In this document: piece by piece, positions 3,856-58,732 of the stretch
Position numbering within the stretch: position 1 is the first letter of the stretch
How the letters are laid out: each line of letters opens with the position of its first letter
Source: an uncultured Lachnospiraceae bacterium
Lineage (GTDB): Bacteria; Bacillota; Clostridia; Lachnospirales; Lachnospiraceae
Length of the DNA: 63,745 nt
Assembly (NCBI GenBank): GCA_905235545.1
Contig: CAJOMI010000001.1
Location: 1-63,745, forward strand
Reading direction: 5' to 3'
The notes under the pieces: model-generated
The model's input: the letters and a program-made list of their open reading frames with translations, nothing else
What the model was told of the DNA's origin: nothing
Database searches by the model: none
Position numbers and translations under genes: made by a program

Positions 3856-3859
3856 GAGG

Positions 3860-38142: not shown

Positions 38143-38164
38143 ATATGACTTGGAGGACAAAGAT

Positions 38165-38464
38165 ATGACGATTAAAGAGATAAAAAAAGAAGGAGAAATT
38201 TTACTTGAAATCACGGGAAGGATTGATACCACAACGGCACCGGAGTTGCAGCAGGCGATATTGATCGCATTTCAAAAGGTAAAGAAACTGGTGATTGATT
38301 TTAAAGCCGTTGAGTACATATCAAGTGCCGGCTTGAGGGCTCTGTTGATCGGAGAGAAAACAGCCAAATCCAAGGGAAGCAGTATGGTCATTACCGGTGC
38401 AAATGATGCTGTAATTGATATATTTAAGGTGACAGGTTTTATCAATATTCTTACATTGGAATAG
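38165..38464 (+). CDS. STAS-domain anti-sigma-factor antagonist (SpoIIAA/RsbV-like)
   Basis: ITGRIDTTTAPELQQ…LVIDFKAVEYISSAGLRALL…MVITGANDAVIDIFKVTGF, with the conserved phosphorylatable Ser in ISSAGL. ATG 38165 follows GGAGGA (alternative TTG 38150). Confidence 0.8.
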   Translation: MTIKEIKKEGEILLEITGRIDTTTAPELQQAILIAFQKVKKLVIDFKAVEYISSAGLRALLIGEKTAKSKGSSMVITGANDAVIDIFKVTGFINILTLE

Positions 38465-38477
38465 GAGATATTACACA

Positions 38478-39578
38478 ATGAAAAAAGGGAAAATAATACT
38501 ACTGAATCTTGTTATAATTGCATATATCGTAACGGTGGCCGGCTGGTTCTTCAATGACGGAAGACTGTTTTATGGCGGATTTGGAACATTCACGGTTGTT
38601 CTCATCGCATTTATGATTGTTGCTATGATAAGGCCGAATACGCACAAGGATTTACAAGAGGAAGAAATCGAGACGGATGATCTTTATGATGACGGAGAGA
38701 AATATGAGGATAATGGTACGGAGGGAGCATTATCCGAAGATTTCGATGCAGCAGATACGTCGTATGAAACATTGGAACAAATATCGGAACGGTTTCGAAA
38801 TGCCAATCGTCACGATGATGATCAGAATGACGAAAATGGCAGTGAAGAATCGCAGGACGGAGAGGAAATTACGGGAGATATCAGTGAAGAGTCGCAGGAC
38901 GAAGAGGAAGGTACGGGAGATTTTAGCGCAGAGTCGCAGAGCGGAGAGGAAGGCACAGGAGATGTCAGTGCTTACCGGATGGCGATTGAAGATCTGAAGG
39001 AAGAACTTGTCGAGGTGCGTGAGGAGCTGGAACGCGCAAACCATGAATTGGCGGAATTACGGTCCAAAGAAAAGGATTCTCGCGAGAGGGGATTGTCCAT
39101 CCTTCCGGAGAGTATGATGCCAAAGGAAGAACTGGACACCATTAATATCGTTGACGTCGCAAAGGGTGTGGCCGATGAACTTCAAACGGATGCTTTTAAG
39201 GCAGGTCTCAGAGTACAGGTTTCCGCCGGAGAGGAACAGATTCTTGTGCGGGCGGATGAAGAACTTCTCCGTGTTTTGTTCCGCAACATTGTGGACAATT
39301 CAATCAAATATATGAATCGTCAGGGGATTCTGGTCATTACACTTTCTACGATAGGTGATGATCTGTTTGTGGTTTTAAAGGATAACGGAGACGGATTAGA
39401 TCCGGAAGAGACAAATCATATTTTTGAGTTAAATTATCAGGGCTCAAACCGAATATCCGGAAACGGTCTTGGACTTGCACAGGCAAAGGCTGTTGTGGAA
39501 TATTATGGTGGAAATATATATGCGAAATCAACGCAGGGTGGCGGTATGGGAATATATATTCAACTGCCGACATCGTGA
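38478..39578 (+). CDS. membrane-anchored HATPase_c protein with acidic repeats and no clear DHp/H-box
   Basis: Two N-terminal TM segments, then an acidic repeat region and a coiled coil. N-box FRNIVDNSIKY, G1 DNGDGL and G2 GNGLGLAQAK follow. Only a weak NHELAEL string sits where an H-box would be, and the DHp second helix seems missing. Confidence 0.6.
   Translation: MKKGKIILLNLVIIAYIVTVAGWFFNDGRLFYGGFGTFTVVLIAFMIVAMIRPNTHKDLQEEEIETDDLYDDGEKYEDNGTEGALSEDFDAADTSYETLEQISERFRNANRHDDDQNDENGSEESQDGEEITGDISEESQDEEEGTGDFSAESQSGEEGTGDVSAYRMAIEDLKEELVEVREELERANHELAELRSKEKDSRERGLSILPESMMPKEELDTINIVDVAKGVADELQTDAFKAGLRVQVSAGEEQILVRADEELLRVLFRNIVDNSIKYMNRQGILVITLSTIGDDLFVVLKDNGDGLDPEETNHIFELNYQGSNRISGNGLGLAQAKAVVEYYGGNIYAKSTQGGGMGIYIQLPTS
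38844..38972 (+). repeat. three 42-45-bp in-frame tandem repeats (EESQDGEEITGDIS-like)
   Basis: GA(A/G)(GAA/GAG)TCGCAG(G/A)(A/G)CG(G/A)AGAGGAA… recurs at 38844, 38886 and 38931. Confidence 0.7.
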
Positions 39579-39638: not shown

Positions 39639-39902
39639 ATGTCATTACTGTATTCGAATCTGTCGGACCGTTTGATGGAAGAGAATCGGCGGGTAAATGC
39701 AGAAAACAAACAAAAAAATGATATTCAGCAGGATCAGGATGAGGATGAGATGGGATATGCCTACGATGAGCCGGTGCATTTTGGATTTCTCAATGAGAAC
39801 AGAGGTATCTTTGTCAATAATGACGATGAGAATGCGCTGAATACGGCTAAAAGTGTATTTGACAAGACAGCAGTCTTTCGAGTAAAGCAGGACGAAGACT
39901 AG
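39639..39902 (+). CDS. small acidic hypothetical protein, 87 aa
   Basis: ORF with a GGAGGTGA RBS, in the same orientation, inside the operon. No family recognised. Confidence 0.4.
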   Translation: MSLLYSNLSDRLMEENRRVNAENKQKNDIQQDQDEDEMGYAYDEPVHFGFLNENRGIFVNNDDENALNTAKSVFDKTAVFRVKQDED

Positions 39903-39969: not shown

Positions 39970-42465
39970 TTGGCAGGTAGAAAGAAAAAAACGGATGAAA
40001 TGGAAGAACAGAATGTAGCGTTGGCGGAAACAAAGGGTACGAATGTTAAGAAGAAGTCGGATTCCGATGTGGAAGTGACGGGTGAAGAAAAGAAAAGAAC
40101 GCAAAGACCTTCTACGATAGACGGGAAGAAAGTCTGCGCATTTACGGGCTATGATGAATATATGCGGCATGTATTCCACTGTGTGAACACATGCCTTTCC
40201 GCATATTTGGAGAATATGAAGTTCACCTTTTCAAACGGACAGGGCGGATATAAAAACGTGCTCTATCCGGATTTGGAGATTGCTTCCGATTCCTGTAATG
40301 AGCAGATCATGAAATACGAGCAGATGTATGGGGAGCAGGAGGAAGTGGAAAAAGAGTATACGGAAAAAACAGGGGGAAAAGAAGAATTCGATGAGGATTT
40401 CCTTTCTCTGCTTGACGCATTTTCTGAGACTTCCGACAATGGGCAGGAAGAAAATTCAAAGAGCAACAAGAAATCTTCTGCCTCCGGTTCAAGCAAGGCA
40501 TTTGATGTGTTAGCACGTCTTGAATGGATATCGGCATGTGCGGAACGCACTGCGGAAAACGGAGTAAGGATGCCTTTTTACGAGCTTACAAAGAAGCTTG
40601 AAATGAGTCCTTTTGCAATGTTTACCTTTGCGAGTGGTGTGCTTTCTTCCACACAGACGGATTATGCCGGTATCTTCCAGATTGTGAATGAGAACGGCGG
40701 TCTCTCTTCTCCGACGATAGAAAGTGCGGCCAAAATCTTTTTCGGCCCCAATTATTCAATAACAGGGGCATACGGTGAGATGAGTGAATGCCTTGAAGTA
40801 TTGCTGCCAATCCTGGATCTTAGGGTAGTTTCCAGTATGCCGTTTTCCACGGTAATTTCTCCGGATAAGCGTATTATCGACTATTTGTTCGGCAAAGATC
40901 CTATGCGCCTTGATGAAAATTATATTCGTTTTTTCAAAATGCTTACGAATGATGAGGAACTGGATCCCATTATGGCGAATGATGGTCAACTTGAGGCAAT
41001 GAAAATATCCTACGGTGAGGGTGTCCGTATTTTCTCCTATTATGGAGACGAAGGAAGCGGAAGAAAGTTCTTTATACGTCATTTCTGCAAAGAAAACGAC
41101 CTTGGTGCGATATCGATCAATTGCAAGAAGTTGTTTGTATATGACTTTAATTTTGTGGAAAAGGCTCTGTGGGCAGTGACAAGAGAGTGTATCTTAACCA
41201 ATTCCTGCTGCTGTCTGGATGAGCTTACCTTTAGAGAGGATGAGAAGGAAAAATTCTACGGCTACATGGATCTGGCATTTGCAAAGCTTACGCAAAAGAA
41301 GATACTGGTATTTGCCATTAGCCGTGAGAAGTTAGCCATGAGAGATATTACCAAAGAAGAGGTGACGGAACTTGAGATACCGACCCCTACCAATGAGGAA
41401 CGCGAGAAATGCTGGAATTATTTTTCGGAAAAGTATGCGCTTGATAAGGATGTGGATAAGTTGGAGATGGCGACCAAGTTCCTTTTTACACCGGGTAAGA
41501 TCAAGTCCGCACTTCACAGTGCCAGAAGTCTTGCAACCATGAACAAGGAGATATTGATTTCACGCGCTACTCTGTTCCAGGGTTGTTACGGTCAGATGAG
41601 TTCGGAACTTACCCAGAAAGCTACTAAGATAAAGGCGAACTTTGGTTTTGAGGATATCGTTATGAATCGTGATCAGCGTGAGACGCTGGAGCATGCGATC
41701 GATCAGATGAACTTTAGAAAACAGGTATATGACGGTTGGCACTATACCAAGAAGTATCCATACGGACGAGGACTTTCAATTCTTCTGTTCGGAGCACCCG
41801 GTACCGGTAAATCCATGTGTGCCCAGGTTATCGCGCATGAACTGAATCTTGAACTTTACAGAGTCGATCTTTCAAAGGTTATTGATAAATACGTCGGTGA
41901 GACTGAAAAGTCTATTTCCATGATCTTTCGAGAGGCAAAGAAATGTAATGTCGTGTTGTTCTTTGATGAGTGTGATACCCTGTTTGCGAAGCGTTCCGAT
42001 GATGGAGGATCCAATCAGGCGTCCAACAATAATAAGACTGCTTTGCTGCTGCAGGAGGTTGAGGGATATGACGGTGTGTCTGTGCTTGCCACGAACTACA
42101 AGCATAATATAGATCCTGCGTTCTTCAGACGTATGAAATATATTGTAGAGTTCCAGTTCCCGGATGTGGACACGAGGGAGATGCTCTGGAACACTACGAT
42201 ACCGAAAGACACTCCTTTGGCCGATGATGTGGATATCCGATATCTGGCTGAAAAGTACGAGCTGGTTGGTGGTAATATCAAGAACTGTATACTGAATGCC
42301 GCTTTTCTGGCCGCAGCAGATCCTGAAGCCGAAGGAAAGGTACACATGGTACACTACCTGCAGGCTGTCAAATACGAGTTTGTTAAGGTTGGTAAAGTAT
42401 TTACACGTTCCGATTTTGAGCCTTATGCAGACCTGATCTTCGGAAAACAGGGCAGCCTGATATGA
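39970..42465 (+). CDS. Afp15-like CIS AAA+ ATPase, copy 1 (831 aa)
   Basis: The C-terminal AAA module has Walker A LLFGAPGTGKS, Walker B VVLFFDECD, and VLATNYKHNIDPAFFRRM. The N-terminal region is long and non-ATPase. TTG start after GAGGAG (alternative ATG 40000). Confidence 0.8.
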   Translation: MAGRKKKTDEMEEQNVALAETKGTNVKKKSDSDVEVTGEEKKRTQRPSTIDGKKVCAFTGYDEYMRHVFHCVNTCLSAYLENMKFTFSNGQGGYKNVLYPDLEIASDSCNEQIMKYEQMYGEQEEVEKEYTEKTGGKEEFDEDFLSLLDAFSETSDNGQEENSKSNKKSSASGSSKAFDVLARLEWISACAERTAENGVRMPFYELTKKLEMSPFAMFTFASGVLSSTQTDYAGIFQIVNENGGLSSPTIESAAKIFFGPNYSITGAYGEMSECLEVLLPILDLRVVSSMPFSTVISPDKRIIDYLFGKDPMRLDENYIRFFKMLTNDEELDPIMANDGQLEAMKISYGEGVRIFSYYGDEGSGRKFFIRHFCKENDLGAISINCKKLFVYDFNFVEKALWAVTRECILTNSCCCLDELTFREDEKEKFYGYMDLAFAKLTQKKILVFAISREKLAMRDITKEEVTELEIPTPTNEEREKCWNYFSEKYALDKDVDKLEMATKFLFTPGKIKSALHSARSLATMNKEILISRATLFQGCYGQMSSELTQKATKIKANFGFEDIVMNRDQRETLEHAIDQMNFRKQVYDGWHYTKKYPYGRGLSILLFGAPGTGKSMCAQVIAHELNLELYRVDLSKVIDKYVGETEKSISMIFREAKKCNVVLFFDECDTLFAKRSDDGGSNQASNNNKTALLLQEVEGYDGVSVLATNYKHNIDPAFFRRMKYIVEFQFPDVDTREMLWNTTIPKDTPLADDVDIRYLAEKYELVGGNIKNCILNAAFLAAADPEAEGKVHMVHYLQAVKYEFVKVGKVFTRSDFEPYADLIFGKQGSLI

Positions 42466-42569
42466 CAATAGATCAGAGCATTAGGGGGGCAAAATACCTT
42501 TTGACCCCAACATCATGATATAGATACATAATACTTCGTTAATTATTTTTCGGGAAACGGGGGGATAGT

Positions 42570-45500
42570 ATGGATGAAGTCGTATTGTCTGAAGAAGAGA
42601 TAAAAGAGCTGAAAAATCAGATTTTAAATGGTGTAAAAAATGCGAAAGCTCAAAATATAAAAGAAAGAAAACAAAAAATTTACAATGATAATGCAAATTT
42701 GATAAATGATTATCTGAAAAAACAAAGAGAACAGGAAATAGTACGGCGTAATAGAAAAAAGAAGTCCCGGACCGGTGGTAATAAGAATATCCAAAACAAT
42801 TATAATCGGACAGTAAAGAATGATCAGTCGGATAATTCTTTAAAGAATAATTTTATAAAGAAGGAAGAAGAAAAAAGGGAAGAGATCAATAACAGAATAA
42901 AGAAAAGCTTTCCGGAACCGGAAAAAACAGACGAAAATAAGCTTCCTGAGGTAGAAGGCGGGAAGGGTGTATTTGAGTTGCCACAAGATATGGAAATTGA
43001 AAAACAGCCTGAGGAGAAGAATGCAGGACAGGAAGATGAACTTATCTTAGAGATTAATGGAAAAGTGGTAGATATAGAGAATCTTGAGGAGAGAGTTTCC
43101 GCTGTACCGGGAATGGAAGAAGTAGAACAGAATGAAGAAAATGACCGGCAAGGTGACATTGCGGATCATGTGATCAATGAAGTCGGTGCAGCAAAGAATG
43201 AACCGAATAACGAAGTAGAGGAAGAAGCAAAGAATGAACGGAATAACGAAATAGAGGAAGAAGCAAAGAATGAACGGAATAATGAACCGAATAACGAAAT
43301 AGAGGAAGAAGCAAAGAATGAACGGAATAATGAACCGAAGGAAGAAGCAAAGAATGAACGGAATAATGAACCGAATAATGAAGTAGAGGACGCAGCAAAG
43401 AATGAACCGGAAATAGAATACGATGATTTTCTGAGTGGCTTATATTTTGTGCTGACCGGAAAAGAGAAGAGATATACTGCAGTAGAGAGAAATGAGCTTA
43501 TGGACAAAGACGTCGATAAGCGATTGTTATATCACCGTACGATGCAAAAAAAACTGGAACTTGATGCCGTTAACCAGATTAAAAAGGAAAGAAACAAAAA
43601 TGAGTTCAAAGACAAGATAAAAAATTTTGAAGAGAATATGCGGGATACTGACGGAATGAGGCGGATTGACGGTTTTCTTAAGATGGACTATACCATTTTT
43701 GATAACTTCGAAGACATCTATATTGTGTTGAACTTCGAAAAATTGAATAATGCAATTGAACAGTCGGAACATATTTATAAGGATGTGTTACCTTTAGCAG
43801 TCGAGGCCGGAACCATTGACGAGAACACCCGGGTGAATGTTACCGCGCTTGCAATGGCAATCGATGACTACAAGGAATATATGAATTATCGTATCATGAT
43901 AATAGCAGATGAGAATTATACGTTGGCATTAGACGAAGAACCGTTTAGAATGAACGCAGATGACGCTGCAATTTATGAGAGATTAGACAAGTTCACTTCA
44001 GACAATAATCTGAGTGAAAGAAACCTCAATACTTTGATGCACTTTGTTACATATAAGACCGGCATGAACGGTAATGACAAAGGTGATAGAAAAAGGAATC
44101 CTTTGTTTGCCGAACATTTTAATGATGAGAAGAGCAATATGCTTACCCGTATGCAGCAATACGGGTTTAGTGCTGAGGAAAAGGAAGAAAATGTTGATGA
44201 GGATATCGATGAGGATCTCGCTGCGCTTGAACAACAGGTAAAGGCTGAGGATGTTGATCAGGAGGCTGACAGGGAAGCTGCGAATATTCCTGAAGTCCCT
44301 GAGATACTTATTCCTAAGAGAAGAAGACAGCTTAATTATCTTATAACGGGAAATGATATTATGCCACAAGAGTTGCATGAGGGCGAAGAGAAAAACAGAA
44401 GTGACCTTGCGGGCAAGGCAAGAGAGATATATCAGGCGTGGGAGAATATGAATCCTGAACTTTCACTGGAAAGAGCTCTTCTTGATGTGTCCAAGTATGA
44501 GGAACAGGGTTTTATACTTCCGCCTGAGATACTTGAAGTGGTAAGGGCGGGAATCCGACCGGGAGAATCTCTTGAGGTAAGGAAGGCGAATGCAGATACT
44601 TTGGCTGAAGGAATGTATCGTGGAGATAATGAGGATGCTAAGCAACTTCCACATATATTGATCAGCAATTATATGCGGACTGATTTTTCAATATTTGATG
44701 CGCTGGATGATGAAGCAATCGTCAGTCATTACAACGAAGCAAAACGTCTGTTGAATTATGGTCTTTCTCTGCAGGAGCTGTTTTATCAGACAGCTGATAA
44801 TAAAACCTGTCTGCTTTCGCAGGACAGGGCAGATAATTTTTATGCCATTCTCTCCGCACTTAGGGATTATATGGATTACGCCACAATACGTATGGATATC
44901 ATTAGAAGTCCGTTTTATTCCCTGTTTGATGTTGATAAAGAGATTAAGGAACAGGATATTAAGCAGGTTGAGGATGCAGGTAAAGGAGAATATGAGGCAG
45001 ATTTGTTGATGTATATAAAAAAATATGCAGATATTGCTCCGTATATTGAAAAAGTAAAAAGAGGAGGCTTCTATGAACGTGCTTCGGGTTATGGATATGT
45101 TGATATAAATGAGTATCTTGATGAAAATCCGGAAATGCAGGAGAAATTCAGAGAGTATATCACACAGGAAAAGAATATGGAAATGTTTGCTGTACTTCCC
45201 CAACTGGTGGAGTATTATGGGGAGGAGGATGAGACAGCAATAGAAAATATTGCCCGAAGTAACGAATTGCGAATTGAGCGTAATAATTTTAACAATGTTC
45301 AAAAGGTTGTAGGCAGCAATAAGGATTATGATGAAGTGAAGAACGATCCGAAGTATGAAGAACAGACTGCAGGGCGTGAAGCTCTTTCGGAGAGGGCGGT
45401 TGAACTGATCAACAGTCTGAATGTTGAGGAAACGGATGCCAATATATGGCTGGATGAACTTATGGATACTGATGTGAGCATACTCGATAACATGTCTTCC

Positions 45501-48500
45501 GATGAGAAGCTGATAGAGCATTTTGAGGATATATTAAAGCTTACCACCAGATGGAAAATCATCAAGGAGAAGCTTTCCGTATATGATGAACAGGGAATGC
45601 ATATTCCTTCCGAAGACAGGATAAAACTTAAGGGATTACAGGAGATGCTTTCTGACGCACAGGTTTACCTTATATTAAAACTGAATCAGATAAAAAATCC
45701 ATTTTATAAGAATATGCACCTCTCTGACGAGATAGGCAATGAAAATACGGATGTAGAAGCATTTAACAGACGGTTAGAAAAATTCGAGAATGACAATGCG
45801 GAGCTTATGAACTATGTGCAGGCAACAGGGCTTGTTGTCAATTCCGCATTTCTTTCGATGTTTGCCGGCAATGGAAAGAATACGGCAGAGAAATATATTC
45901 AGGCTGTTTCAACTTCAGAGGAAGCAAGAATACAGGAAACAAACCAAAATCGTATATCGAAAATGGCAGATAACTATGCAGCTGTCACTTATCTGTTTGA
46001 CGGAGGAGAGGGACAGATTAACGCAGATATGCGCTTATTTTCTGAGGGATCAGGTAAGCGAGAAGGAAGAACCAAAAAAAGCTTAGAGGCAGTAGACGCG
46101 TATACTGCGTATAACGAAAAAGTTATGGATACTTTTAAGACGGCCAAAGAAAGGTTAAAAGTAATCCGTTATGCAAATTATGATATCGATCCTAAGATCA
46201 TCAACGGAATTTATACAATGTTAAAGATCGGAGGTACTGAAGAGGACATCAAGTATAATACAGAGCTCCTTATGAACCTCGGGGCGGAGAATATTAACAC
46301 AAGAGGAGCAGCGTACAAAGAGATGGTAGATAACTTACTCGCTGTTGAGCTATCTAAGTTTGACAGATGCGATGATGAGTATTTTATCGCTAATTATACG
46401 GAGCTTAAGTCTTTAGCGGAACCGGCAATCGCATTGGCCCGGCCGGGAGTGATCAATTCGTTTGCAAAGAACGGATATCGAATATCAGAACAGAAGAAGA
46501 AAAATCTGGTTGCCCTTTCGGATAATATCAAAAAATATATGGACTTTATGGATGCACGTATGAAGGTCATTCAACATCCGCTTTACGAACTCGTATTTCG
46601 GGAGACGGATAACAACAAGGATTTCAAACCTGAGGAATTGAAACAACGGATGTTAAGAGCCGGTCAGATGATGAGTTCAAAAGACAGGGACTATATAGAG
46701 GTTCTTGTGAATGCATTCTCCGTAAGCTTTCCGTTTGCAATGCGTAATATGTCTATGCGGGAACGACTTGAAGCAGACGGTTATAAAACTCCGGAGGGAG
46801 GAGCTTATGATGAGGATATCGCCGGTAATGAGGCTTATCAGCAAGAGATTGCAGACGATCATATAATAAAAGAGACAGTGGAGCTTCGGACAGAGCAGTT
46901 CGTTACCAATGTGCTCAAAGAACTTGGCACGGGTGATGGAAAGCAGAGTTTGGAGGATTATGAGAAGCAGAACGCTGACAGGGAGAAGAGAAAAACACTT
47001 TCCGAGAAAATGAGAACACTTCCGGAATTCGATAGCGTCGAGCCGGTAATACTTGTAATGGATCTTTTGGCAGGACATGAGGATGTAATTAATGCATTCC
47101 TCTCCATGGATTTTAAGGAACTTGATAATCTTAGTGATGAAACTATCGTTGAAAGATATCAGGATATAGCAGCACTTTGCAGAGTGGATGATCAGGTTCG
47201 TCCGGCGCTTGAAACACTAAGGGCAGATTATAATGATACGAACAAGGATGCGAAGGATAAACCAACAACCACAACAATATCTGCAGTGGTGGGCAGACTG
47301 GAAATGCTGAATGATCTGAGAAATTATATGGTGGTTAAGAGATTGGTTATCAGCAATCCACTATATGAGAAGCATTATAATGAGGCTTATCTATCGTATC
47401 ATGAAGATGCGGGTGCTATGCATGATAAGATAGATTCTTTGGAGGGAAAGCTAAGCGAAGATGAGGCGGAATATCTTAGGAATGTTGCAAGTATTATGAG
47501 TAAACCGTTCATGGCAAGATACACCGGCAACGGTAAAACCACGGCTGATGCTTATGGAAAACAGCAGGAAAACGATAACTTTGCAAGAGGCGAGCTGAAA
47601 GATGAAGGTAAAAAGAACGTCATTTTAGATGAGAATGAAAGATCTGCGGGTGAGATTTCCGGTGATCCGGAGGATATCAATACTTCGTTGGCGAATATAG
47701 AGGGAGAACTGGGTTCTAAAGCAATGTCGGAACCGTTGAATGAATTGAAAACATTCACGGAAACTTCCCAATATCAGCAACGGCTCTATAAGAGAGAAAT
47801 GCAAACCAGAAATTTTTCCAAAGATATCAACCATAATATGCAGCCGATCAAGGAACAGATTAAAATAATATTTAATCTGTTAAATGAGGAGATGAATTAC
47901 GGTCATGATGACCAGTTTGCTGAAGAATTGGATTTGCTACTCAATCATTTTGAGGTATTGGGTGTATTATGCAGTCAGTATCTGACCGGTACGCGAAACA
48001 AAACGTCGGATGATATGAATCAGGCTGCGATCAGAAAGGTGCGAAGGATCAGAGATATTGCCCATTATGCATATACCCAGACATACACCAGTGCGCGCAT
48101 GAGCCGTATATATTTCAGACAGCAGGATATATCCGGAAGAAGAGTTCCATGGATCAATATGTATCACTATGCGGAGCAACCTATTGTATGGGAACAGGGA
48201 TTGGTTCCATATACAGAGATCAATAAAGAAGAAATATCGGCGATAAAAGGTGAGAAGAAACCAAGGACCAGGCTTAAGGAATTTACACCTGAGGATAATT
48301 CTTTTGTGAAGATCGAACACTGGATGACAATATTTTCCGAATGCAAGCCAGACTATGTCAATGCGATTGACCGTGAGCTGTCCATTAAAGACATGGAAAA
48401 GATTGAGAAGCTGGTAAACACTGTAAATATGCGGACAAATCAGGGGCTTCCGGATGATTCGAGGGATTTTATCCGGGCATGTGATGATATGATACATTCC

Positions 48501-48803
48501 TTTACCGCTACGAATATTCGATTAAAAAAGTATATTGATAATATGAAGGTTGAGACGGAGGATGACAAGACACAGAAGCGGATGTTGGAGAATGTTATGT
48601 ACCTGTTGAAGTCACAGATTGATTTATACAATGTATATGGAAATAGCGTTCCGGATACATACGAGGTTATAAAGAATGATCCCAAGAATGATACGATCAG
48701 TGATGTATTTTTGTCATGGTATCAGGATTATGCAGCCAGAGCCATAAAAAAGATGGAACAGATGAAGCAGGTGGAAGCAGGTACAGGTGAGAAAGATTCG
48801 TAA
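42570..48803 (+). CDS. giant charged repeat protein, 2077 aa, five ~250-330-aa internal modules; function unknown (cargo or scaffold candidate)
   Basis: Single uninterrupted ORF with a GGGGGGA RBS. A recurring motif pair [ST]D[FV]SI[FL]D … Y[ML]D[YF]…R[ML]x[IV]I..P[FL]Y appears five times. No signal peptide, TM or catalytic motif recognised. Confidence 0.6.
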   Translation: MDEVVLSEEEIKELKNQILNGVKNAKAQNIKERKQKIYNDNANLINDYLKKQREQEIVRRNRKKKSRTGGNKNIQNNYNRTVKNDQSDNSLKNNFIKKEEEKREEINNRIKKSFPEPEKTDENKLPEVEGGKGVFELPQDMEIEKQPEEKNAGQEDELILEINGKVVDIENLEERVSAVPGMEEVEQNEENDRQGDIADHVINEVGAAKNEPNNEVEEEAKNERNNEIEEEAKNERNNEPNNEIEEEAKNERNNEPKEEAKNERNNEPNNEVEDAAKNEPEIEYDDFLSGLYFVLTGKEKRYTAVERNELMDKDVDKRLLYHRTMQKKLELDAVNQIKKERNKNEFKDKIKNFEENMRDTDGMRRIDGFLKMDYTIFDNFEDIYIVLNFEKLNNAIEQSEHIYKDVLPLAVEAGTIDENTRVNVTALAMAIDDYKEYMNYRIMIIADENYTLALDEEPFRMNADDAAIYERLDKFTSDNNLSERNLNTLMHFVTYKTGMNGNDKGDRKRNPLFAEHFNDEKSNMLTRMQQYGFSAEEKEENVDEDIDEDLAALEQQVKAEDVDQEADREAANIPEVPEILIPKRRRQLNYLITGNDIMPQELHEGEEKNRSDLAGKAREIYQAWENMNPELSLERALLDVSKYEEQGFILPPEILEVVRAGIRPGESLEVRKANADTLAEGMYRGDNEDAKQLPHILISNYMRTDFSIFDALDDEAIVSHYNEAKRLLNYGLSLQELFYQTADNKTCLLSQDRADNFYAILSALRDYMDYATIRMDIIRSPFYSLFDVDKEIKEQDIKQVEDAGKGEYEADLLMYIKKYADIAPYIEKVKRGGFYERASGYGYVDINEYLDENPEMQEKFREYITQEKNMEMFAVLPQLVEYYGEEDETAIENIARSNELRIERNNFNNVQKVVGSNKDYDEVKNDPKYEEQTAGREALSERAVELINSLNVEETDANIWLDELMDTDVSILDNMSSDEKLIEHFEDILKLTTRWKIIKEKLSVYDEQGMHIPSEDRIKLKGLQEMLSDAQVYLILKLNQIKNPFYKNMHLSDEIGNENTDVEAFNRRLEKFENDNAELMNYVQATGLVVNSAFLSMFAGNGKNTAEKYIQAVSTSEEARIQETNQNRISKMADNYAAVTYLFDGGEGQINADMRLFSEGSGKREGRTKKSLEAVDAYTAYNEKVMDTFKTAKERLKVIRYANYDIDPKIINGIYTMLKIGGTEEDIKYNTELLMNLGAENINTRGAAYKEMVDNLLAVELSKFDRCDDEYFIANYTELKSLAEPAIALARPGVINSFAKNGYRISEQKKKNLVALSDNIKKYMDFMDARMKVIQHPLYELVFRETDNNKDFKPEELKQRMLRAGQMMSSKDRDYIEVLVNAFSVSFPFAMRNMSMRERLEADGYKTPEGGAYDEDIAGNEAYQQEIADDHIIKETVELRTEQFVTNVLKELGTGDGKQSLEDYEKQNADREKRKTLSEKMRTLPEFDSVEPVILVMDLLAGHEDVINAFLSMDFKELDNLSDETIVERYQDIAALCRVDDQVRPALETLRADYNDTNKDAKDKPTTTTISAVVGRLEMLNDLRNYMVVKRLVISNPLYEKHYNEAYLSYHEDAGAMHDKIDSLEGKLSEDEAEYLRNVASIMSKPFMARYTGNGKTTADAYGKQQENDNFARGELKDEGKKNVILDENERSAGEISGDPEDINTSLANIEGELGSKAMSEPLNELKTFTETSQYQQRLYKREMQTRNFSKDINHNMQPIKEQIKIIFNLLNEEMNYGHDDQFAEELDLLLNHFEVLGVLCSQYLTGTRNKTSDDMNQAAIRKVRRIRDIAHYAYTQTYTSARMSRIYFRQQDISGRRVPWINMYHYAEQPIVWEQGLVPYTEINKEEISAIKGEKKPRTRLKEFTPEDNSFVKIEHWMTIFSECKPDYVNAIDRELSIKDMEKIEKLVNTVNMRTNQGLPDDSRDFIRACDDMIHSFTATNIRLKKYIDNMKVETEDDKTQKRMLENVMYLLKSQIDLYNVYGNSVPDTYEVIKNDPKNDTISDVFLSWYQDYAARAIKKMEQMKQVEAGTGEKDS
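43191..43410 (+). repeat. tandem 36/48-bp in-frame DNA repeats encoding AKNE(R/P)NNE(PNNE)(I/V)EEE units
   Basis: GCAAAGAATGAAC(C/G)GAATAA(C/T)GAA… recurs six times from 43191 to 43395. Confidence 0.8.
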
Positions 48804-48851
48804 ACGAGTCTTGACATGAAATGAGGTCAGGGATAGAAGAGGTGATATACA

Positions 48852-51056
48852 ATGTATGGATACGGAGATTATTATGACGAGAGACTTACCCAAATTCCAT
48901 ATACGGACAGCAGTGAAGAACTTGAGGATTACAGGGCATTAGTTGAGATTATGTTAGAGGATCTGGCGGGAATCAAGGGGGTCGGCACAGAGGAAGGATT
49001 GTTCTCCAAAGGGCTGGTAATCTCCGAAGCAGAGATGCAGGAGTATTTTGTGAATCACCCTTCCGTCAGAGAAAAGGATTTTTATTTCTATATATTGGGT
49101 GATGTGGTGAAACAGGCAATAGGACACATAGAAAGCAGAGAGGAGAGCACATCGGATAATGTCTTTTTGCCCATAAGGAATATCAGAAAGAATTTTGGAC
49201 TCAGTGACGCTTGGACAGTGGCATTGGTACTTGCCTTCCTTGCCCATACGAACAGGGGATATGAGAGAATATATGGATTTTTGCAGGATGATATAGAAAG
49301 CAGTGAACCGACACTGGGACTTGCTGTTTCTTTGTGTGAGAGAGCCTTTTATGAGGATAAACTCAGTGCTTCAGATATACTGTCGGACAAGTCATATCTG
49401 TTCGGAACGTTATTCATGGAGGAGGGAATCAATCCGGTATATCCTCTTCGCACGAAACTGATCCTGACAGGAGCAGCACTGACTTATATGAATGGGAATA
49501 CCACTCTTTTTGGTTATGGTGCCGGGATTCCGTATGGCTTGCTATGTGAATATGAAGACGGGAAGACGCCGGCCTTTTTTGAAAAGGAGGTAAAGGTGCT
49601 TTTCAATCTGATCAGACATGGTGACGCGTTACCGTGCCTGTTTGTGGAAGGCAGGGATCAGGATGCGATCATTCATGTGGCAGCGCTGGCGGCGCGTGCT
49701 AACGGAAAGCGTTTCGTCACCGTGTCGGGTGAGTCAATAAGTACGGCAGATGAAATGGAATGTTCCGGTATGGTGGCTTTTTTGTCTTTTTATGGTCATA
49801 TGGAAGGAATTACGGTGATGGTAACGGATGTGACGGATGAGAGGCTTGCAGATGAATCCTTTACGCGCATATTGAAGAGATTGATCCGGACAGAGGGAAT
49901 TGCCCCATTTCTATTTGCAGGAAGTGATCAGACACCGGAAAGATTTAAGACCGGAGCTGCGACGGGAACGCCTGTCCTCCATTTGCAACTACCGGTACCG
50001 GATGTAAAAGTCCGAACCACGATATGGGATTATTTTATCAAAGATGCCGGATTGTCCAAAGAAAAGGGATTTTCCAGCGAGGAGATCGCAGACTGTTATG
50101 AGGTAGGCTATGGTGTTATCAAGACTGCAGTGTCCCAGGCAAAACTCAATATGCTGGCAAATGGAGTAAAAAAGGTTAACAAGGATATCGTAGCCGATGC
50201 ACTGAAAGGAATCGGAACGGTCAACTTCAAAGGACTGGCCAAGGAGGTGCGGGCAGTCTACACATGGGAGGATCTTTGTATTGGAGATACGGAGCGCAGA
50301 GTGCTTCAGACGGCATGTGACCGCTATAAGATAAAGAACCGCATCGGTGAGAACTGGGGCATTACGAAAAAAAATGCTTACGGAAACGGTGTATCGGTGT
50401 TGTTGTATGGTCCGCCGGGAACCGGTAAAACCATGTCGGCACAGGTGGTGGCAAGAGAAATCGGACTTCCGTTATATCGTGTAGATACGTCGCAGCTCTT
50501 CTCAAAATATATCGGGGAGACACAAAAGAACTTAAATGCGGTATTTGACGAGGCAGAGGCTTCCAATGTGATACTGTTTTTTGATGAGGCGGATGCGCTT
50601 TTTTCAAAGAGGACGGATGTGGAGAGTTCCAATGACCGTCATGCTAATCAGGAAATCGCTTTTCTTCTCCAGAGGATAGAGGAATATAAAGGAATGAGTC
50701 TGCTTGCCACAAACTTTTATTCGGGATTTGATCAGGCATTTGTACGTCGTATCACATACGCGGTGAGATTAGAACAGCCGGATTACGAGACAAGACTCTC
50801 TCTTTGGAACAATACGCTTCCGGAAGAGGTCCCGAAGGAAAAATCAATTGATTATGAATTTTTAGCAAAGAATTTTGAACTTACGGGAAGTAACATCAAG
50901 GCAATCCTTCTCTCGGCTGCTTATATGGCCGGAGCAGAGGACGGAATGCTTTCCATGGCACATATCGTCCGGGCTATGAAATATGAGTTTGACAAGCTCG
51001 GCATGATGCCGGACTCGGGCAAATTTGGACCTTATTCCGTGTATTTGTTTGGATGA
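48852..51056 (+). CDS. Afp15-like CIS AAA+ ATPase, copy 2 (734 aa)
   Basis: Walker A LLYGPPGTGKT, Walker B ILFFDEAD, and LLATNFYSGFDQAFVRRI. The C-terminal module is clearly alignable to copy 1. Confidence 0.8.
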   Translation: MYGYGDYYDERLTQIPYTDSSEELEDYRALVEIMLEDLAGIKGVGTEEGLFSKGLVISEAEMQEYFVNHPSVREKDFYFYILGDVVKQAIGHIESREESTSDNVFLPIRNIRKNFGLSDAWTVALVLAFLAHTNRGYERIYGFLQDDIESSEPTLGLAVSLCERAFYEDKLSASDILSDKSYLFGTLFMEEGINPVYPLRTKLILTGAALTYMNGNTTLFGYGAGIPYGLLCEYEDGKTPAFFEKEVKVLFNLIRHGDALPCLFVEGRDQDAIIHVAALAARANGKRFVTVSGESISTADEMECSGMVAFLSFYGHMEGITVMVTDVTDERLADESFTRILKRLIRTEGIAPFLFAGSDQTPERFKTGAATGTPVLHLQLPVPDVKVRTTIWDYFIKDAGLSKEKGFSSEEIADCYEVGYGVIKTAVSQAKLNMLANGVKKVNKDIVADALKGIGTVNFKGLAKEVRAVYTWEDLCIGDTERRVLQTACDRYKIKNRIGENWGITKKNAYGNGVSVLLYGPPGTGKTMSAQVVAREIGLPLYRVDTSQLFSKYIGETQKNLNAVFDEAEASNVILFFDEADALFSKRTDVESSNDRHANQEIAFLLQRIEEYKGMSLLATNFYSGFDQAFVRRITYAVRLEQPDYETRLSLWNNTLPEEVPKEKSIDYEFLAKNFELTGSNIKAILLSAAYMAGAEDGMLSMAHIVRAMKYEFDKLGMMPDSGKFGPYSVYLFG

Positions 51057-51243: not shown

Positions 51244-52203
51244 ATGAAACCAGATACCAAAACCTATTATGATATTCCTGAAGATTTTATGAATCGCTTA
51301 AAAGAGCGGGGATATAAGAAAGTAACCGGCGAACAGAAGAAAGAGTTCGATCCTTATTATGATAAGATGAATGAACATTGGTGTGCGAATACCAGTTTTG
51401 TGAATCTATGGGGATGGAGTGATACCTTTCCGGTATATTGTAAAATATCAAACGGATATGTATACCTGATCCAATTCCTGCGGACAGACGGATATCCGGT
51501 GGCTAGTCCTTTTTTGGGATGTTATACGAAAGATGGGATTACAGAGGCAATCAGGGAAATTAAAAAGGATTTTGAATATTTTGAGTATCCGTTGGTGTTC
51601 ATGGATATTACGCCATGGATGCTCCCCTATTTTACAGAGACCGGAATTGATTTTGAGATAGAAGATCTTAGAGAACTTCAGGATTATATCTATACACCGG
51701 AGGCTTTATGGGAGGGATTGAATCAATCCGATGATCGTTATCGGTATCGTTATTTTAAGAGAAGATATCAATACGAGACAATAGAACTGAACTCAGAACA
51801 TGCAGATGAGTGTCTGCGCTTCATGGATGAGCATTGGTGTAAATTCGAGGAGTGCAGCAAATGCTGCGGTTGTTTGAAACAAGTGATATTCCGTGTGGTT
51901 TCAAAATTTGACACGCCTGACGAATATGGTATATTGGTACGTGTAGAGGGGAAGACAGCCGGTATATGCATTGTGTCAAACAGAAATGGTCTTGGAATTT
52001 ATCAATACAAAAATGCTGTCAATCAGATCAAGGGAATCAATGAATATTTGTTGCGCGAATGCTTTGAACGCTATTTGCAGAATGTAGATGTTATTAATTA
52101 TACAGAAGATATGGGTATAGAAAATCTGCGTTATTATAAGGAGCATTTGACCTCTCATTATTCGCTGCTCTCAAAATATACATTAAGTGAAAAGGTTAGA
52201 TGA
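51244..52203 (+). CDS. DUF2156 / LPG_synthase_C-like (GNAT-fold, aminoacyl-transferase-like) protein, paralogue A
   Basis: …DYIYTPEAL…DDRYRYRYFKRRYQYETIEL…GILVRVEGKTAGICIVS…KGINEYLLRECFERYL…INYTEDMGIENLRYYKEHL follows the DUF2156 layout as I remember it. It has a CSKCCGC cysteine cluster. Confidence 0.5.
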   Translation: MKPDTKTYYDIPEDFMNRLKERGYKKVTGEQKKEFDPYYDKMNEHWCANTSFVNLWGWSDTFPVYCKISNGYVYLIQFLRTDGYPVASPFLGCYTKDGITEAIREIKKDFEYFEYPLVFMDITPWMLPYFTETGIDFEIEDLRELQDYIYTPEALWEGLNQSDDRYRYRYFKRRYQYETIELNSEHADECLRFMDEHWCKFEECSKCCGCLKQVIFRVVSKFDTPDEYGILVRVEGKTAGICIVSNRNGLGIYQYKNAVNQIKGINEYLLRECFERYLQNVDVINYTEDMGIENLRYYKEHLTSHYSLLSKYTLSEKVR

Positions 52204-55163
52204 TTATGCGATATTTATTTTTAAAGAAACAAACCGAATCAAATGAAGAACGGACAAAACAGGTGAATAAATATTTGGTTGCTATATTGATGTTGCTGCT
52301 GATCGTTTTTTCGGTTTTGCTCTTTCTGTTTAGAGGCTGGATTGGGGAGACAGAACTCTCTTCTTATGCACTGAGTGAGGTCTCTGATATTGCGGCAGAT
52401 CGTGAGGGAAATCTTTATATTTTGGCAGATGCGACGGATGCTGTGTTAAAAGTGTCGCCGGATGGAGTTTTGTTAGACAGAATTCGATTCCCGGAACTCG
52501 ATGATATGTCCTCTGCAATCCATATCGCAGTGGGTGGAGATGATAATATATATCTGCATGAAGTGGTGATCGATCAGGGAGTTTTGCTGGAAAAAGAGCA
52601 GATTGGACGATTGAATTCAAAACTGCATGATCTTGAAGTGCTGGATACCATTTGGGAAAAAGACGGAACCGTGCGGCAGTCTGTTGCAGGTATTGCGCCC
52701 ACAAAAACAGGAATCCGTTATATCAAAAAAGATTCATCCGGTATGGTAGTATATGATGAGAACGCTACGGAGACAGTAAGTTGTTCCTATCCAAAGGCGG
52801 ATGAGCAAATTCTGTATGCCGTTACGGACGATATTGGAAATGATATCTTCTATGTTACATATAATGGAGAGGTTTATCGTTATGTGAATGGAAAAGAGGA
52901 TACCCTGCTCTATGACAGCGATGAACGAGAAGGAAGCGTTCCACAGTCTGTAAGCTATGCAGACGGGATATTGTATGTGACAGATATCGGATTGCGTGAT
53001 ATCATCATGATCAACGTGGACACAGGAGAAATGAAATTTCGTTCTACCGAGGGTGAGATCAAGGAACGTGCGATTGAATATTTTGTATCCGCTACGAATC
53101 ATATGGTGTCTGCAGGGGAATATTCAATTACCCTTTGGAATGAAACGGATTATGTGCAACTGTGGGACTTGGAAATTGGCGGCGGTGTGAAAGCAAAAAT
53201 TATATTCACATGGATTGCGATATTTTATATTGGCATTTTTCTGTTTATCATGTTGACCAGATTGCTTCATTATTTTTTCAGGCGGGCCAATATATATAGT
53301 AAGGTTGCTTTTTTTATCTTTATAGGCGTTGCGATTCTGGTTGCCCTTTTGGTTGGAACGATGTTCCCGGAGTTTCTCTCCCAGCTTACCGAGCAGATAT
53401 ACGAAAAAGAGATTCTTGCAGCTTCCGTGGTGGCAGATCAGATACCGGAAGATTCTTTTCTGGCACTGAATAAGCCTTCGGATTTTATGAATGAGGATTA
53501 TAAGAAAGTGCAAAGTGTGCTGGACAGTGTATTTGCATCGGAAGATAGTGGATCCCAAGCGTATTATTGCGTGCTTTATCGCCTGATGGATGGAGTGATT
53601 ACTCTGACTTATACCATGGAGGATATCTGCGTTGTATATCCTTATGATTGGGAGTATGAGGGAAGCGGAATGCAGGATGTCATGGAGAAAGGGACGATAT
53701 CCCAATACAGCAGTACCAGTAATACCGGTAGTTATCTGTTTGTGCATTACCCGATTACCGGCAGTGATGGGAACATCATTGGATTGGTAGAGGTTGGTAC
53801 CGATTTGAATTCAGTGACAGAAAAAAATAAAAATATTATTCTTTCTATGTTGTTAAATGTATTTGCCATGACAGTGGCTGTCATCATGCTCCTGGTTGAA
53901 ATCATGTATTATGTGAAGGACAGAAATGCTTATATAGAAAAGAATAAACATTCGACAGATCCCGTATCATTGCCACCGGGGATTTTCAGATTTATTGTAT
54001 TTTTAATATTTTTATTTACAAACCTGACCTGTGTGATTCTGCCAATTCATGCAAAGGAGCTTGCGGGGGGACAGGGAATATTTGGTCTTTCTCCGGCTAT
54101 TTCAGCTGCGATTCCGATTTCGGCAGAAGTTTTTTCAGGTGCGGTCTTTTCTGCACTTGGAGGGAAAATCATTGACAAACTCGGTGCAAAAAAGGCGATA
54201 TTGGTTTCCGGTATATCGTTTACACTTGGACTTTTGGTGCGTGTGGTGCCGCATATTTTGATGCTGATTCTGGGTTCTGTCCTGTTAGGTGCCGGATGGG
54301 GCGTGCTGCTGATTATGGTAAATGTACAGATTGCGGAACTTTCAGATGAGGAGAAGGATAAGGGGTATTCTTATTATAGTGTATCCTCTATATCGGGGGT
54401 TAATTGTGGAGTTATACTCGGAGGATTTCTGGTACAGTGGTGTTCCTATACCACAATCTTTTTAATAACCGCTGCAGTCAGTGTGTTGTTATATATTGTC
54501 TGTCGAAAGTATCTTGCAGACAATATGCCGAAGTATGATAAGACAGAATCAGAAGAGAACACATCGGACGGTCATAGTAACTGGAGATTGATTTTAAGTC
54601 CTCGTGTTTTATGTTTCTTTGGAATGGTGTTAACACCGCTTTTGATCTGCGGATATTTCCTGAATTATCTTTTCCCGATCCTGGGATCGGAATGGGGCAT
54701 GTCCGACTCCTATATCAGTTATGCTTTTATGATCAGCGGAGTGATTGTGCTTTGTTTTGGAACGCATTTGACGGAAGTTTTTACCAGACGTAATCTGCGG
54801 CGTTTTGGTCTTACGGTGTCAGTTTTACTTTATGCGGAGGCATTTCTGGCTATGGCACTTATGGAGAATATTCCATCGCTTTTGCTGGCGCTTGTATTGA
54901 TCGGATTTGCAGACAGTTTCGGAATACCACTGTTAACCAGTTACTTTACGGAGCTTGATGAAGTCGAACAGTTTGGTTATGACAGAGCATTTGGTGTTTA
55001 CAGTGTGTTTGAGAACGGCGCACAGTCGCTGGGCGCTTATGTACTGGGTATTGTATATAATATCGGGATACAAAAAGGTATGTTATTATTAGTAGGAGTC
55101 ATCACGATATTTGCATTAGCCTTTTTCTTCACGTCGCTTCCGAAAAAGAGCGCTTGCAAATGA
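52200..55163 (+). CDS. fusion protein: extracytoplasmic NHL/beta-propeller-like + Cache-like sensor region + C-terminal MFS transporter domain, 987 aa
   Basis: ATGA overlap with the upstream gene. Repeated LY[IV][LT][AD]D strings are present (NLYILADATD, GILYVTDIGL). A Cache-like segment (…YLFVHYPITGSDGNIIGLVEVGTDL) follows. The C-terminal part has about 12 hydrophobic helices with the MFS-like GGKIIDKLGAKKAILVSG. Confidence 0.55.
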   Translation: MIMRYLFLKKQTESNEERTKQVNKYLVAILMLLLIVFSVLLFLFRGWIGETELSSYALSEVSDIAADREGNLYILADATDAVLKVSPDGVLLDRIRFPELDDMSSAIHIAVGGDDNIYLHEVVIDQGVLLEKEQIGRLNSKLHDLEVLDTIWEKDGTVRQSVAGIAPTKTGIRYIKKDSSGMVVYDENATETVSCSYPKADEQILYAVTDDIGNDIFYVTYNGEVYRYVNGKEDTLLYDSDEREGSVPQSVSYADGILYVTDIGLRDIIMINVDTGEMKFRSTEGEIKERAIEYFVSATNHMVSAGEYSITLWNETDYVQLWDLEIGGGVKAKIIFTWIAIFYIGIFLFIMLTRLLHYFFRRANIYSKVAFFIFIGVAILVALLVGTMFPEFLSQLTEQIYEKEILAASVVADQIPEDSFLALNKPSDFMNEDYKKVQSVLDSVFASEDSGSQAYYCVLYRLMDGVITLTYTMEDICVVYPYDWEYEGSGMQDVMEKGTISQYSSTSNTGSYLFVHYPITGSDGNIIGLVEVGTDLNSVTEKNKNIILSMLLNVFAMTVAVIMLLVEIMYYVKDRNAYIEKNKHSTDPVSLPPGIFRFIVFLIFLFTNLTCVILPIHAKELAGGQGIFGLSPAISAAIPISAEVFSGAVFSALGGKIIDKLGAKKAILVSGISFTLGLLVRVVPHILMLILGSVLLGAGWGVLLIMVNVQIAELSDEEKDKGYSYYSVSSISGVNCGVILGGFLVQWCSYTTIFLITAAVSVLLYIVCRKYLADNMPKYDKTESEENTSDGHSNWRLILSPRVLCFFGMVLTPLLICGYFLNYLFPILGSEWGMSDSYISYAFMISGVIVLCFGTHLTEVFTRRNLRRFGLTVSVLLYAEAFLAMALMENIPSLLLALVLIGFADSFGIPLLTSYFTELDEVEQFGYDRAFGVYSVFENGAQSLGAYVLGIVYNIGIQKGMLLLVGVITIFALAFFFTSLPKKSACK

Positions 55164-55235
55164 GATTGAAATTGCGGGAAAAACGGATGAATCGACACGA
55201 AGTGGAAACTGCTATGAAAGAGGAGTAATAATGGC

Positions 55236-56900: not shown

Positions 56901-56960
56901 AGCGAACAAGGCATTTATCTCGTTAGTGAATCTTGGAGTGATGTTGAGGAGGTATATTTT

Positions 56961-57392: not shown

Positions 57393-57455
57393 GAATAAGA
57401 AGAATGGATGCAGATGTATTTTTCTGCAGTATTCTTTAATGTTAGGATGATGCGA

Positions 57456-58601: not shown

Positions 58602-58732
58602 GTTTCATTAAGTACCGGCGGCTCCAAAGCACCTGTTTGTGGAATCTGTACAATATGTACAATCTAATATATAATATTAATGAGTTTCACAATTATCTAG
58701 AGATAAGGAGAGTTGAAGGGAGATATAGAACT

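Follow-up and report, generated by a model that had tools for sequence, protein, structure and literature searches.

The AAA+ ATPase known as Afp15, Pvc15 or Cis15 is encoded in the loci of contractile injection systems (CIS), where its role, be it in assembly or in the recognition, unfolding and loading of payloads, is debated, which limits the engineering of these particles for protein delivery. Pvc15 is laid out as an N-domain, a non-canonical D1 and an active D2; it binds the signal peptides, or N-termini, of payloads, stabilizes and loads them, and is dispensable for particle assembly (PMC11495950). Only one Afp15 figures in the published core gene sets (PMC6899500), and no description of a second CIS ATPase was found by a full-text search of the literature, the coverage of which was incomplete. 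Here we analyze a CIS locus with two such ATPases, found in a stretch of 63,745 nucleotides (hereafter, the window) from an uncultured Lachnospiraceae bacterium (assembly GCA_905235545.1, contig CAJOMI010000001.1, positions 1 to 63,745). As proposed in the first-pass annotation, which was made from the letters of the sequence, three consecutive open reading frames (ORFs) of the + strand encode an 831-aa ATPase (39970-42465, hereafter AAA1), a giant protein of 2077 aa (42570-48803) and a 734-aa ATPase (48852-51056, AAA2), the two Afp15-like enzymes, both of which match PF00004 (E 7e-27 and 4e-28), bracketing the giant. The same 831-aa and 734-aa products appear in the public gene calls on a near-identical contig. 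The two ATPases turned out to be non-equivalent: AAA1 is found throughout the CIS lineage to which the locus belongs, and AAA2 is tied to the giant ORF.

Both proteins show the arrangement characteristic of Afp15/Pvc15, i.e., a winged-helix-type N-domain, a degenerate D1 and a single active D2 of the classic clade, within a CIS locus. Translation of AAA1, the core Afp15/Pvc15-type ATPase, begins at a TTG codon with GAGGAG located 8 nt upstream, and its product starts with an N-extension of low complexity (aa 1-177), followed by a winged-helix N-domain that has diverged, a D1 in which the P-loop is deviant (YGDEGSGRKF) and an active D2, the ATPase core of which (aa 604-729; 41779-42156, + strand) matches PF00004 with E 6.6e-27. 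In the accessory enzyme, AAA2, the winged-helix domain (WHD; PF22977, aa 85-186, 42.3 bits at a cut-off of 27) is followed by a D1 that lacks a P-loop and by an active D2 (PF00004, aa 516-638, 98.8 bits, E 4e-28). Compared with Pvc15/Afp15, AAA1 is thus distinguished by an N-extension of ~170 low-complexity residues and by a WHD below Pfam detection, AAA2 by the complete loss of the D1 P-loop and by its coupling to a giant ORF, and the locus itself by the presence of two ATPases with split evolutionary behavior. The AAA1 protein of the window has no direct Pfam WHD match; many members of its family carry the PF22977 WHD together with the AAA domain. The catalytic and pore-loop residues, as read from the sequence, are intact in both D2 modules: GAPGTGKS, VLFFDECD, the ATN motif with the sensor-1 Asn, RR fingers and a KYVG pore loop in AAA1, and GPPGTGKT, ILFFDEAD, ATN (sensor-1 Asn), RR fingers and a KYIG pore loop in AAA2.

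The kinship of the C-terminal modules, recognized in the first-pass annotation by their Walker motifs, is confirmed by 36% identity over the C-terminal 404 aa (E 4e-84). The N-terminal regions, which had been judged much less alike by eye, indeed share only ~16% identity over the N-terminal halves, but profile-profile alignment revealed that they are homologous throughout (hhalign probability 99.6%, E 1.3e-24, 380 columns, AAA1 178-586 versus AAA2 84-498). As a reference we used the ATPase in the Pvc15 position of a PVC-like locus on a Serratia plasmid, where its gene is flanked by those annotated as tape measure and Pvc16. AAA1 shares 39% identity with it over 259 aa (186 bits) and AAA2 36% over 361 aa (217 bits, plus a weak WHD segment), the reference fitting AAA2 slightly better than AAA1; these matches, together with the Pvc15-like layout, therefore place both proteins among the genuine Afp15/Pvc15 members. 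Searches of the two ATPases against PHROGs, NCBIfam and PADLOC detected generic D2 similarity only (IetA/IteA, PAN, Cdc48), far below the family cut-offs. On a neighbor-joining tree of D2 modules, tentative as it was rooted by midpoint only, the AAA1 copies form one tight clade, and AAA2 falls into a separate, long-branched clade together with a stand-alone ATPase of Flexilinea. A recent tandem duplication was considered and rejected on the basis of the 36% identity, the separate clades and the seeming polyphyly of second ATPases in the lineage (the latter being tentative). AAA1 and AAA2 are old paralogues with different roles.

Distribution of the AAA1 family is broad. The search with its N-terminal region yielded 175 clusters, abundant in Lachnospiraceae and Anaerotignum, and a scan of metagenomes with AAA1 returned 80 loci, ~76 of them distinct; in these ~76 related loci the baseplate genes and small regulators are immediately followed by a gene of the AAA1 type. 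Loci from this and the other searches are numbered L001 onward below. No second ATPase lies within reach in 22 of the 28 distinct AAA1-type loci whose downstream sequence extends over 6 kb or more, second ATPases being counted here as a lower bound since the flanks end at 10 kb. Judged by this distribution, AAA1 is the core ATPase of the clostridial CIS lineage in question. The locus L006 possesses a homologous core, one ATPase and no giant, and the pair of giant and AAA2 is therefore accessory.

The AAA2 family is far narrower: the search with the N-terminal region of AAA2 gave only 16 clusters, and the genome scan revealed 8 loci, all in Lachnospiraceae or Clostridiales metagenome-assembled genomes (MAGs), with no family copy outside such CIS loci. 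Its synteny with a giant ORF is strict. In all 11 distinct loci with sequence upstream of AAA2 (the window, L008, L010, L011/12 and L015-L021), AAA2 is directly preceded either by a giant ORF (1677-2666 aa) or by an ORF that is cut by the contig end and terminates in the C-terminal domain of the giant, and AAA1 lies directly 5' of the giant in 8 of the 8 loci reaching far enough. In the window, the giant is separated from AAA1 by 104 nt and from AAA2 by 48 nt, and neither gap contains a terminator-like site. The three genes evolve at markedly different rates: across the eight complete triads the median pairwise identity is 87% for AAA1 (range 83-96%), 57% for AAA2 (53-79%) and 27% for the giant. 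The divergence of AAA2 closely tracks that of the giant (Spearman rank correlation 0.97 over 28 locus pairs), while AAA1 correlates at 0.77 with the giant and with AAA2 alike; as the locus pairs are phylogenetically non-independent, these correlations are descriptive only. In L008, the closest homologue of AAA2 (69% identity) follows a giant of 2666 aa that is not homologous to that of the window, and therefore the link of AAA2 is to a giant ORF in general rather than to one protein family. By gene order and divergence, the giant and AAA2 behave as an accessory, co-inherited two-gene unit in a payload-type region. The proposal, put forward in the first-pass annotation, of an ATPase dedicated to the giant protein is partly supported, in that AAA2 is tightly coupled to the giant; AAA1 is the core enzyme.

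The giant protein (~240 kDa) is soluble and acidic, without transmembrane segments or a signal peptide. Its N-terminal region of ~330 aa (42570-43559, + strand) is charged and of low complexity, the first 100 aa being basic and the rest acidic. It is followed by five copies, all on the + strand, of a new all-alpha domain of ~155 aa with ~20% identity between copies: repeat 1 (aa 363-537, 43656-44180), repeat 2 (aa 697-849, 44658-45116), repeat 3 (aa 957-1109, 45438-45896), repeat 4 (aa 1249-1407, 46314-46790) and repeat 5 (aa 1505-1662, 47082-47555). The repeats were found by segment-wise BLAST, BLAST of the whole giant against itself having shown nothing, and were delimited by self-comparison, alignment and an iterated hidden Markov model (HMM); homologous giants contain four or five of them. 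The C-terminal domain (~380 aa, aa 1693-2071; 47646-48782, + strand) is the best conserved part of the protein, with the core motif RKVRRIR..YA.TQTYTSARMSRIYFRQQD..G.R.PW.N.YYYAEQPIVWEQGLVPY, and its profile matches solely giants adjoining AAA2. Nothing in Pfam, PHROGs, NCBIfam, PADLOC or the PDB sequences matches the giant. When aa 880-2077 were compared exhaustively by HMMER with 1.84 billion representatives, only 8 clusters matched; a word-index search with the whole giant returned the query alone, candidates having probably been swamped by the low-complexity N-terminus. The AlphaFold2 model of repeat 1, built from a five-row alignment, consists entirely of helices (pLDDT 64) and has no match in the PDB by Foldseek (best E ~4). 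A single-sequence model of the C-terminal domain is helical as well but of low confidence (pLDDT 36), and the profile of this domain matched in the PDB only designed coiled coils with E above 1e-3. With the moderate to low confidence of these two models, a mostly alpha-helical structure is predicted for the giant. The NERNNEP/EEEAK low-complexity stretch of the N-terminal region is encoded by tandemly repeated DNA at 43190-43412 (periods 36, 48 and 84 nt); the giant of the near-identical contig has 2065 rather than 2077 aa, with the 12-aa (36-nt) difference within the tandem repeat region and the rest of the alignment identical, so the copy number of this array varies in nature.

With the payloads of extracellular contractile injection systems (eCIS) such as Pnf and Cif of PVC, the giant shares a position after the core in a variable region, cytoplasmic character and a charged, low-complexity N-terminus, the disorder of which was judged from composition. 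It differs from them in size (2077 aa versus a few hundred), in the length of the disordered region (~330 aa versus ~50-70), in five internal repeats, in the lack of a detectable toxin domain and in having its own adjacent ATPase. Likeness to the Afp14/Cis14 tape measures lies in gene order (a long helical protein followed by an ATPase), fast evolution and repetitiveness. The giant nevertheless differs from the 585-aa Serratia tape measure, to which it has no BLASTP similarity, and matches no tape-measure model of NCBIfam, Pfam or PHROGs, although the latter negative is weak evidence, the Serratia tape measure itself matching no library model. Moreover, giants vary in length (1677-2666 aa) and are absent from L006, which has the same core, and from most AAA1-type loci. 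The usual place of the tape measure is occupied in the window by another ORF, of 846 aa (24188-26728), located between the tube and baseplate-hub genes. Its product, in which E, N and R are frequent and internal tandem repeats of ~74 aa occupy aa 414-644, resembles neither any library model nor the annotated CIS tape measure of Serratia, and is, by position, a likely tape measure candidate.

The slot after AAA1 is hypervariable across the lineage and is populated by large ORFs without library match (eight were sampled against Pfam). The first 150 aa of slot ORFs of at least 600 aa carry more charge and have a lower hydrophobic fraction (median 0.24) than those of the upstream structural proteins (0.35), a composition corresponding to the pattern of disordered, low-hydrophobic and charge-rich N-termini described for CIS payloads (PMC12210884). 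The ~155-aa repeat of the giant recurs in other loci as a single copy near the N-terminus (~aa 210-400) of slot proteins of 740-1456 aa encoded after the ATPases (L011:2859-6908, L011:7863-12233, L019:12229-16251, L019:17206-21432, and others in L043, L048, L091 and L103), and may represent a shared adaptor or recognition module of slot proteins. The idea that all slot giants form a single fast-evolving family was discarded: the giants of L003, L007 and L008 gave no BLAST match to that of the window and no match to the iterated repeat HMM, those of L003 (1874 aa) and L007 (1973 aa) do not match each other, and the 2666-aa giant of L008 does not match the C-terminal domain profile. The Pfam scan of the eight large slot proteins produced a sole toxin-like hint, a sub-threshold ADP-ribosyltransferase match (PF03496, E 0.002; PF01129, E 0.005) in the 744-aa slot protein L048:17483-19717. 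In L027, L050, L065, L076, L093, L094 and L101, the first large ORF after AAA1 (1250-1620 aa) starts with a Sec-type signal or anchor (e.g., KKVCVGMLVLSLLSTATGIGSVFVYADE), so that some products of the variable slot are probably unrelated surface proteins and not candidates for cytoplasmic payloads.

Additional Afp15-like ATPases in the payload-type region are a repeated theme in the lineage, comprising at least three lineages on the neighbor-joining tree. A 686-aa second ATPase directly follows AAA1 in L029, L030 and L045, further forms occur in L035, L048, L072, L097 and L099, and in L003 a distant WHD-AAA protein is encoded 3' of the giant and an 852-aa ORF. The locus L007:6307-12250 (Clostridia MAG GCA_026000755.1) contains two AAA1-type ATPases, 63% identical to each other, with STAS and histidine kinase genes between them, followed by a 291-aa ORF and an unrelated giant of 1973 aa, and thus represents a different route to two ATPases and a giant. 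The co-occurrence of the duplicated ATPase with the giant, listed in the first-pass annotation among the checks, proved strict for the AAA2 family (11/11) and loose in the wider lineage. An unrelated second ATPase is present without a giant nearby in L029, L097 and L099, and a non-secreted ORF of 1571-1596 aa occurs without a second ATPase within reach in L056 and L062, so that the presence of a giant and that of a second ATPase are not strictly bound to each other across the lineage. Genes of the AAA1 type were also met in other settings. An AAA1-type ATPase is paired with a Pvc16_N cap-like gene alone in L004:9399-12187 and L005:562-3350, where a response regulator, a histidine kinase and flagellar genes are the neighbors and no further CIS structural gene was met within 10 kb. 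In L073, the AAA1-type gene is split into ORFs of 564 and 210 aa, which may be due to a frameshift, a pseudogene or an assembly error.

Considering these data, we tentatively favor, as quite possible though not yet probable, the explanation that the giant and AAA2 constitute a payload-type cassette carrying its own loader or unfoldase, client-dedicated to the giant. The giant would be a payload or a payload scaffold, and AAA2, presumably acting as a homo-oligomer, would work upon it. AAA1 would perform a generic, conserved job for the machine, while AAA2 would form a hexamer of its own, the fast-evolving N-domain and D1 of which would recognize the giant through its charged disordered N-terminus or its conserved C-terminal domain. 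The intact D2 of AAA2 (Walker A and B, sensor-1, arginine fingers and the KY[IV]G pore loop) could then keep the 2077-aa protein soluble and unfold or thread it for association with the particle, as Pvc15 does for signal-tagged payloads; the loader mechanism is borrowed from Pvc15 as the most economical one. The principle of a dedicated handling factor, encoded beside a large client and inherited together with it, is familiar from the adaptors of the DUF4123/DUF1795 type in type VI secretion systems and from the class-I chaperones of type III secretion systems, from which AAA2 would differ as a full AAA+ unfoldase paralogous to the core ATPase instead of a small passive chaperone. A wider proposal, which we consider rather doubtful, is that the two debated jobs of Afp15/Pvc15 have been split in clostridial contractile injection systems between a slow core enzyme and exchangeable, cassette-borne, client-specific unfoldases, with AAA2 feeding the giant into or onto the particle.

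Several observations weigh against a payload and its loader. No toxin or enzyme domain was detected in the giant by Pfam, PHROGs, NCBIfam, PADLOC and PDB sequence searches or by Foldseek against the PDB; with 2077 aa, it far exceeds the size of known lumen-loaded payloads, and a simple cargo would hardly be expected to carry a putative adaptor domain five times. Large non-secreted slot ORFs do exist without a second ATPase (L056 and L062, see above), and the co-divergence of AAA2 and the giant may reflect linkage and shared history only. Pairing of a close AAA2 homologue with a non-homologous giant in L008 weakens sequence-specific recognition of the giant by AAA2, and fits instead the recognition of a generic feature, e.g., a long disordered charged terminus.

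Some of the same features would be explained if the giant were a structural or assembly component, serving as a ruler in the manner of a tape measure, as an internal scaffold or as a tether or anchor, and AAA2 were its assembly chaperone. In the Serratia class-I locus the annotated tape measure gene lies directly 5' of the ATPase, in the same order as the giant and AAA2 (cf. Afp14-Afp15); like tape measures, the giant is repetitive, fast-evolving, helical in both AlphaFold2 models and devoid of a detectable enzyme domain; no ORF of the window matches a tape-measure model, and no obvious tail-fiber gene follows Tail_P2_I. Such a role is nevertheless unlikely, given that the 846-aa ORF already holds the usual tape-measure position and that L006 manages with a homologous core and no giant. 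The size of the giants (1677-2666 aa) and the number of their repeats (four or five) also vary, and the giant of L008 is not even homologous, whereas the core ATPase, the only core gene compared, is conserved. A ruler of 2077 aa at ~0.15-0.2 nm per residue would correspond to a tube longer than 300 nm, and the repeat domain occurs in single copy in slot proteins of 740-1456 aa.

The first-pass annotation had also envisaged a hetero-oligomeric ATPase, and AAA1 and AAA2, being full-length paralogues with the same three-domain layout and co-present in all eight complete triads, could in principle form one hetero-hexamer specialized for this type of locus, in the manner of Pex1/Pex6, paralogous type-II (double-ring) AAA proteins with one ring degenerate and known to form hetero-hexamers. 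We regard this as improbable and, for an obligate complex, as disfavored: unlike the Pex pair, AAA1 normally occurs without AAA2 (22 of 28 loci show no second ATPase within reach), being the sole ATPase of most related loci, and AAA2 is accessory, which argues against an obligate heteromer. In addition, no AAA1 is present within 10 kb upstream in L008, a distant AAA2-like ATPase stands alone in Flexilinea, and the identity ranges of 83-96% for AAA1 versus 53-79% for AAA2, with a rank correlation of only 0.77, fit poorly to a co-evolving shared interface. Still less credible, in our opinion, is that the giant and AAA2 are an independent module, such as a conflict or defense system or a self-contained ATPase-substrate pair, lodged in the CIS locus without acting through it. 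WHD-AAA ATPases do exist outside CIS loci (Flexilinea P0136, and the Pvc16_N-ATPase pair standing alone in L004), the D2 modules resemble the defense ATPase IetA/IteA, though far below the family cut-offs, and the slot is a hotspot for unrelated insertions, including the surface proteins with Sec signals. Every instance of AAA2 found, however, has the same CIS context, with AAA1 on the 5' side in the 8 loci reaching that far and a block of LPG_synthase_C, MFS and SpoIIE genes on the 3' side in those with enough sequence (the window/L001, L008, L010 and L022); no copy of the giant-AAA2 pair was found outside CIS loci in the genome scan, and the giant has no PADLOC match.

The CIS to which the three genes belong is encoded on a strongly strand-biased contig of 39-48% G+C, the + strand of which holds nearly all genes. 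A complete core, identified by Pfam matches, occupies 18080-38142 and includes a Pvc16_N cap, the sheath (Phage_sheath_1/1C), a gp19-like tube protein (Phage_T4_gp19), two CIS_tube proteins, a YQBQ-like ORF in the split-spike/hub position, a Phage_base_V spike, GPW_gp25, two Baseplate_J proteins and Tail_P2_I. Sheath, tube, split spike, gp25, Baseplate_J, Pvc16_N and AAA+ ATPase are thus combined in one cluster, and by this gene content the locus belongs to the class-II contractile injection systems, its host being a bacterium of the Lachnospiraceae type; the two afp11-like genes and the split spike correspond to subtypes IIa/IIc as defined in the published classification (PMC6899500). Identical or near-identical contigs (e.g., L001) come from metagenome assemblies, and the relatives of the locus from rumen and gut MAGs of Lachnospiraceae and Anaerotignum. 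Upstream of the cap gene, at 2068-17915, lie seven large + strand ORFs (595, 280, 843, 414, 746, 1035 and 1271 aa) with almost no Pfam matches; one of them has MORN repeats and another matches OEP weakly, and the two largest products (1035 and 1271 aa) are paralogous to each other, three segments aligning at 26-33% identity.

The core is followed by genes of a STAS protein, a HATPase_c protein and an 87-aa ORF, then by AAA1, the giant and AAA2, and further downstream by genes of an LPG_synthase_C protein, an MFS fusion, a SpoIIE phosphatase and a small kinase-like ORF. The STAS protein (38150-38464, + strand; Pfam), located between the baseplate genes and AAA1, and the HATPase_c kinase-like protein (38478-39578, + strand; Pfam) form a pair of the partner-switching type, and genes of both recur between the baseplate and AAA1 in L003, L006, L007 and L010. 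The 87-aa ORF directly 5' of AAA1 (39639-39902, + strand) has counterparts with 68-84% identity in six related loci, an ORF of 85-87 aa being called in this place in L001, L003 and L010. On the other side of AAA2, all on the + strand, are encoded the LPG_synthase_C protein (51244-52203; Pfam, the GNAT-fold C-terminal part of MprF), the fusion protein of the major facilitator superfamily (MFS; 52200-55163; Pfam) of ~990 aa with extra N-terminal transmembrane segments, the HAMP-SpoIIE phosphatase (55236-56900; Pfam) and a 143-aa ORF (56961-57392) annotated as HATPase_c_2 on the near-identical contig L001. The order of this block (51244-57392) is kept in L010 and L022 and partly in L008. In all three of these loci the LPG_synthase_C and MFS fusion genes lie directly downstream of the ATPase region, with 51-71% identity; a second LPG_synthase_C paralogue is located in the window at 58637-59689, and many other loci have GNAT-like ORFs of ~290-310 aa in this slot. 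The set of STAS, HATPase_c/HATPase_c_2 and HAMP-SpoIIE genes (38150-39578 and 55236-57392) recurs in varied arrangement in L003, L006, L007, L008 and L010, L006 possessing a dCache-SpoIIE-HATPase_c_2 fusion. Presence of this partner-switching-type set suggests that firing or assembly of the CIS is under anti-sigma-like or phospho-switch control. Just past the locus, two genes of the spore-germination type at 57408-61547 encode a cell wall hydrolase of the SleB type (Hydrolase_2) and a subtilase that is CspB-like and has a Csp prodomain; they are consistent with a host from spore-forming Clostridia. Alternatively, the hydrolase could have a role in particle release; as to whether the particles act extracellularly or stay cytoplasmic or membrane-anchored, it and the nearby membrane proteins are no more than suggestive.

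As far as searched, the arrangement of a second ATPase and a giant ORF is unreported; it is real and conserved, and makes the function of Afp15-type ATPases directly testable. This type of locus provides a natural separation of function, in which one ATPase is nearly constant and the second co-varies with a single huge neighbor. If AAA2 is a client-specific loader, its N-domain and the terminal regions of the giant would represent a portable recognition pair and would show how a CIS can handle very large proteins. Should the debated jobs of Afp15/Pvc15 indeed be split between the two enzymes, the ~240-kDa, five-module, alpha-helical giant would be the representative of a new family and of a new class of very large CIS clients, and the second ATPases would be the first effector-linked AAA+ loaders in any contractile system. 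The locus also marks out an uncharacterized CIS lineage of gut and rumen Lachnospiraceae, with large domainless proteins in its variable region and a built-in partner-switching module.

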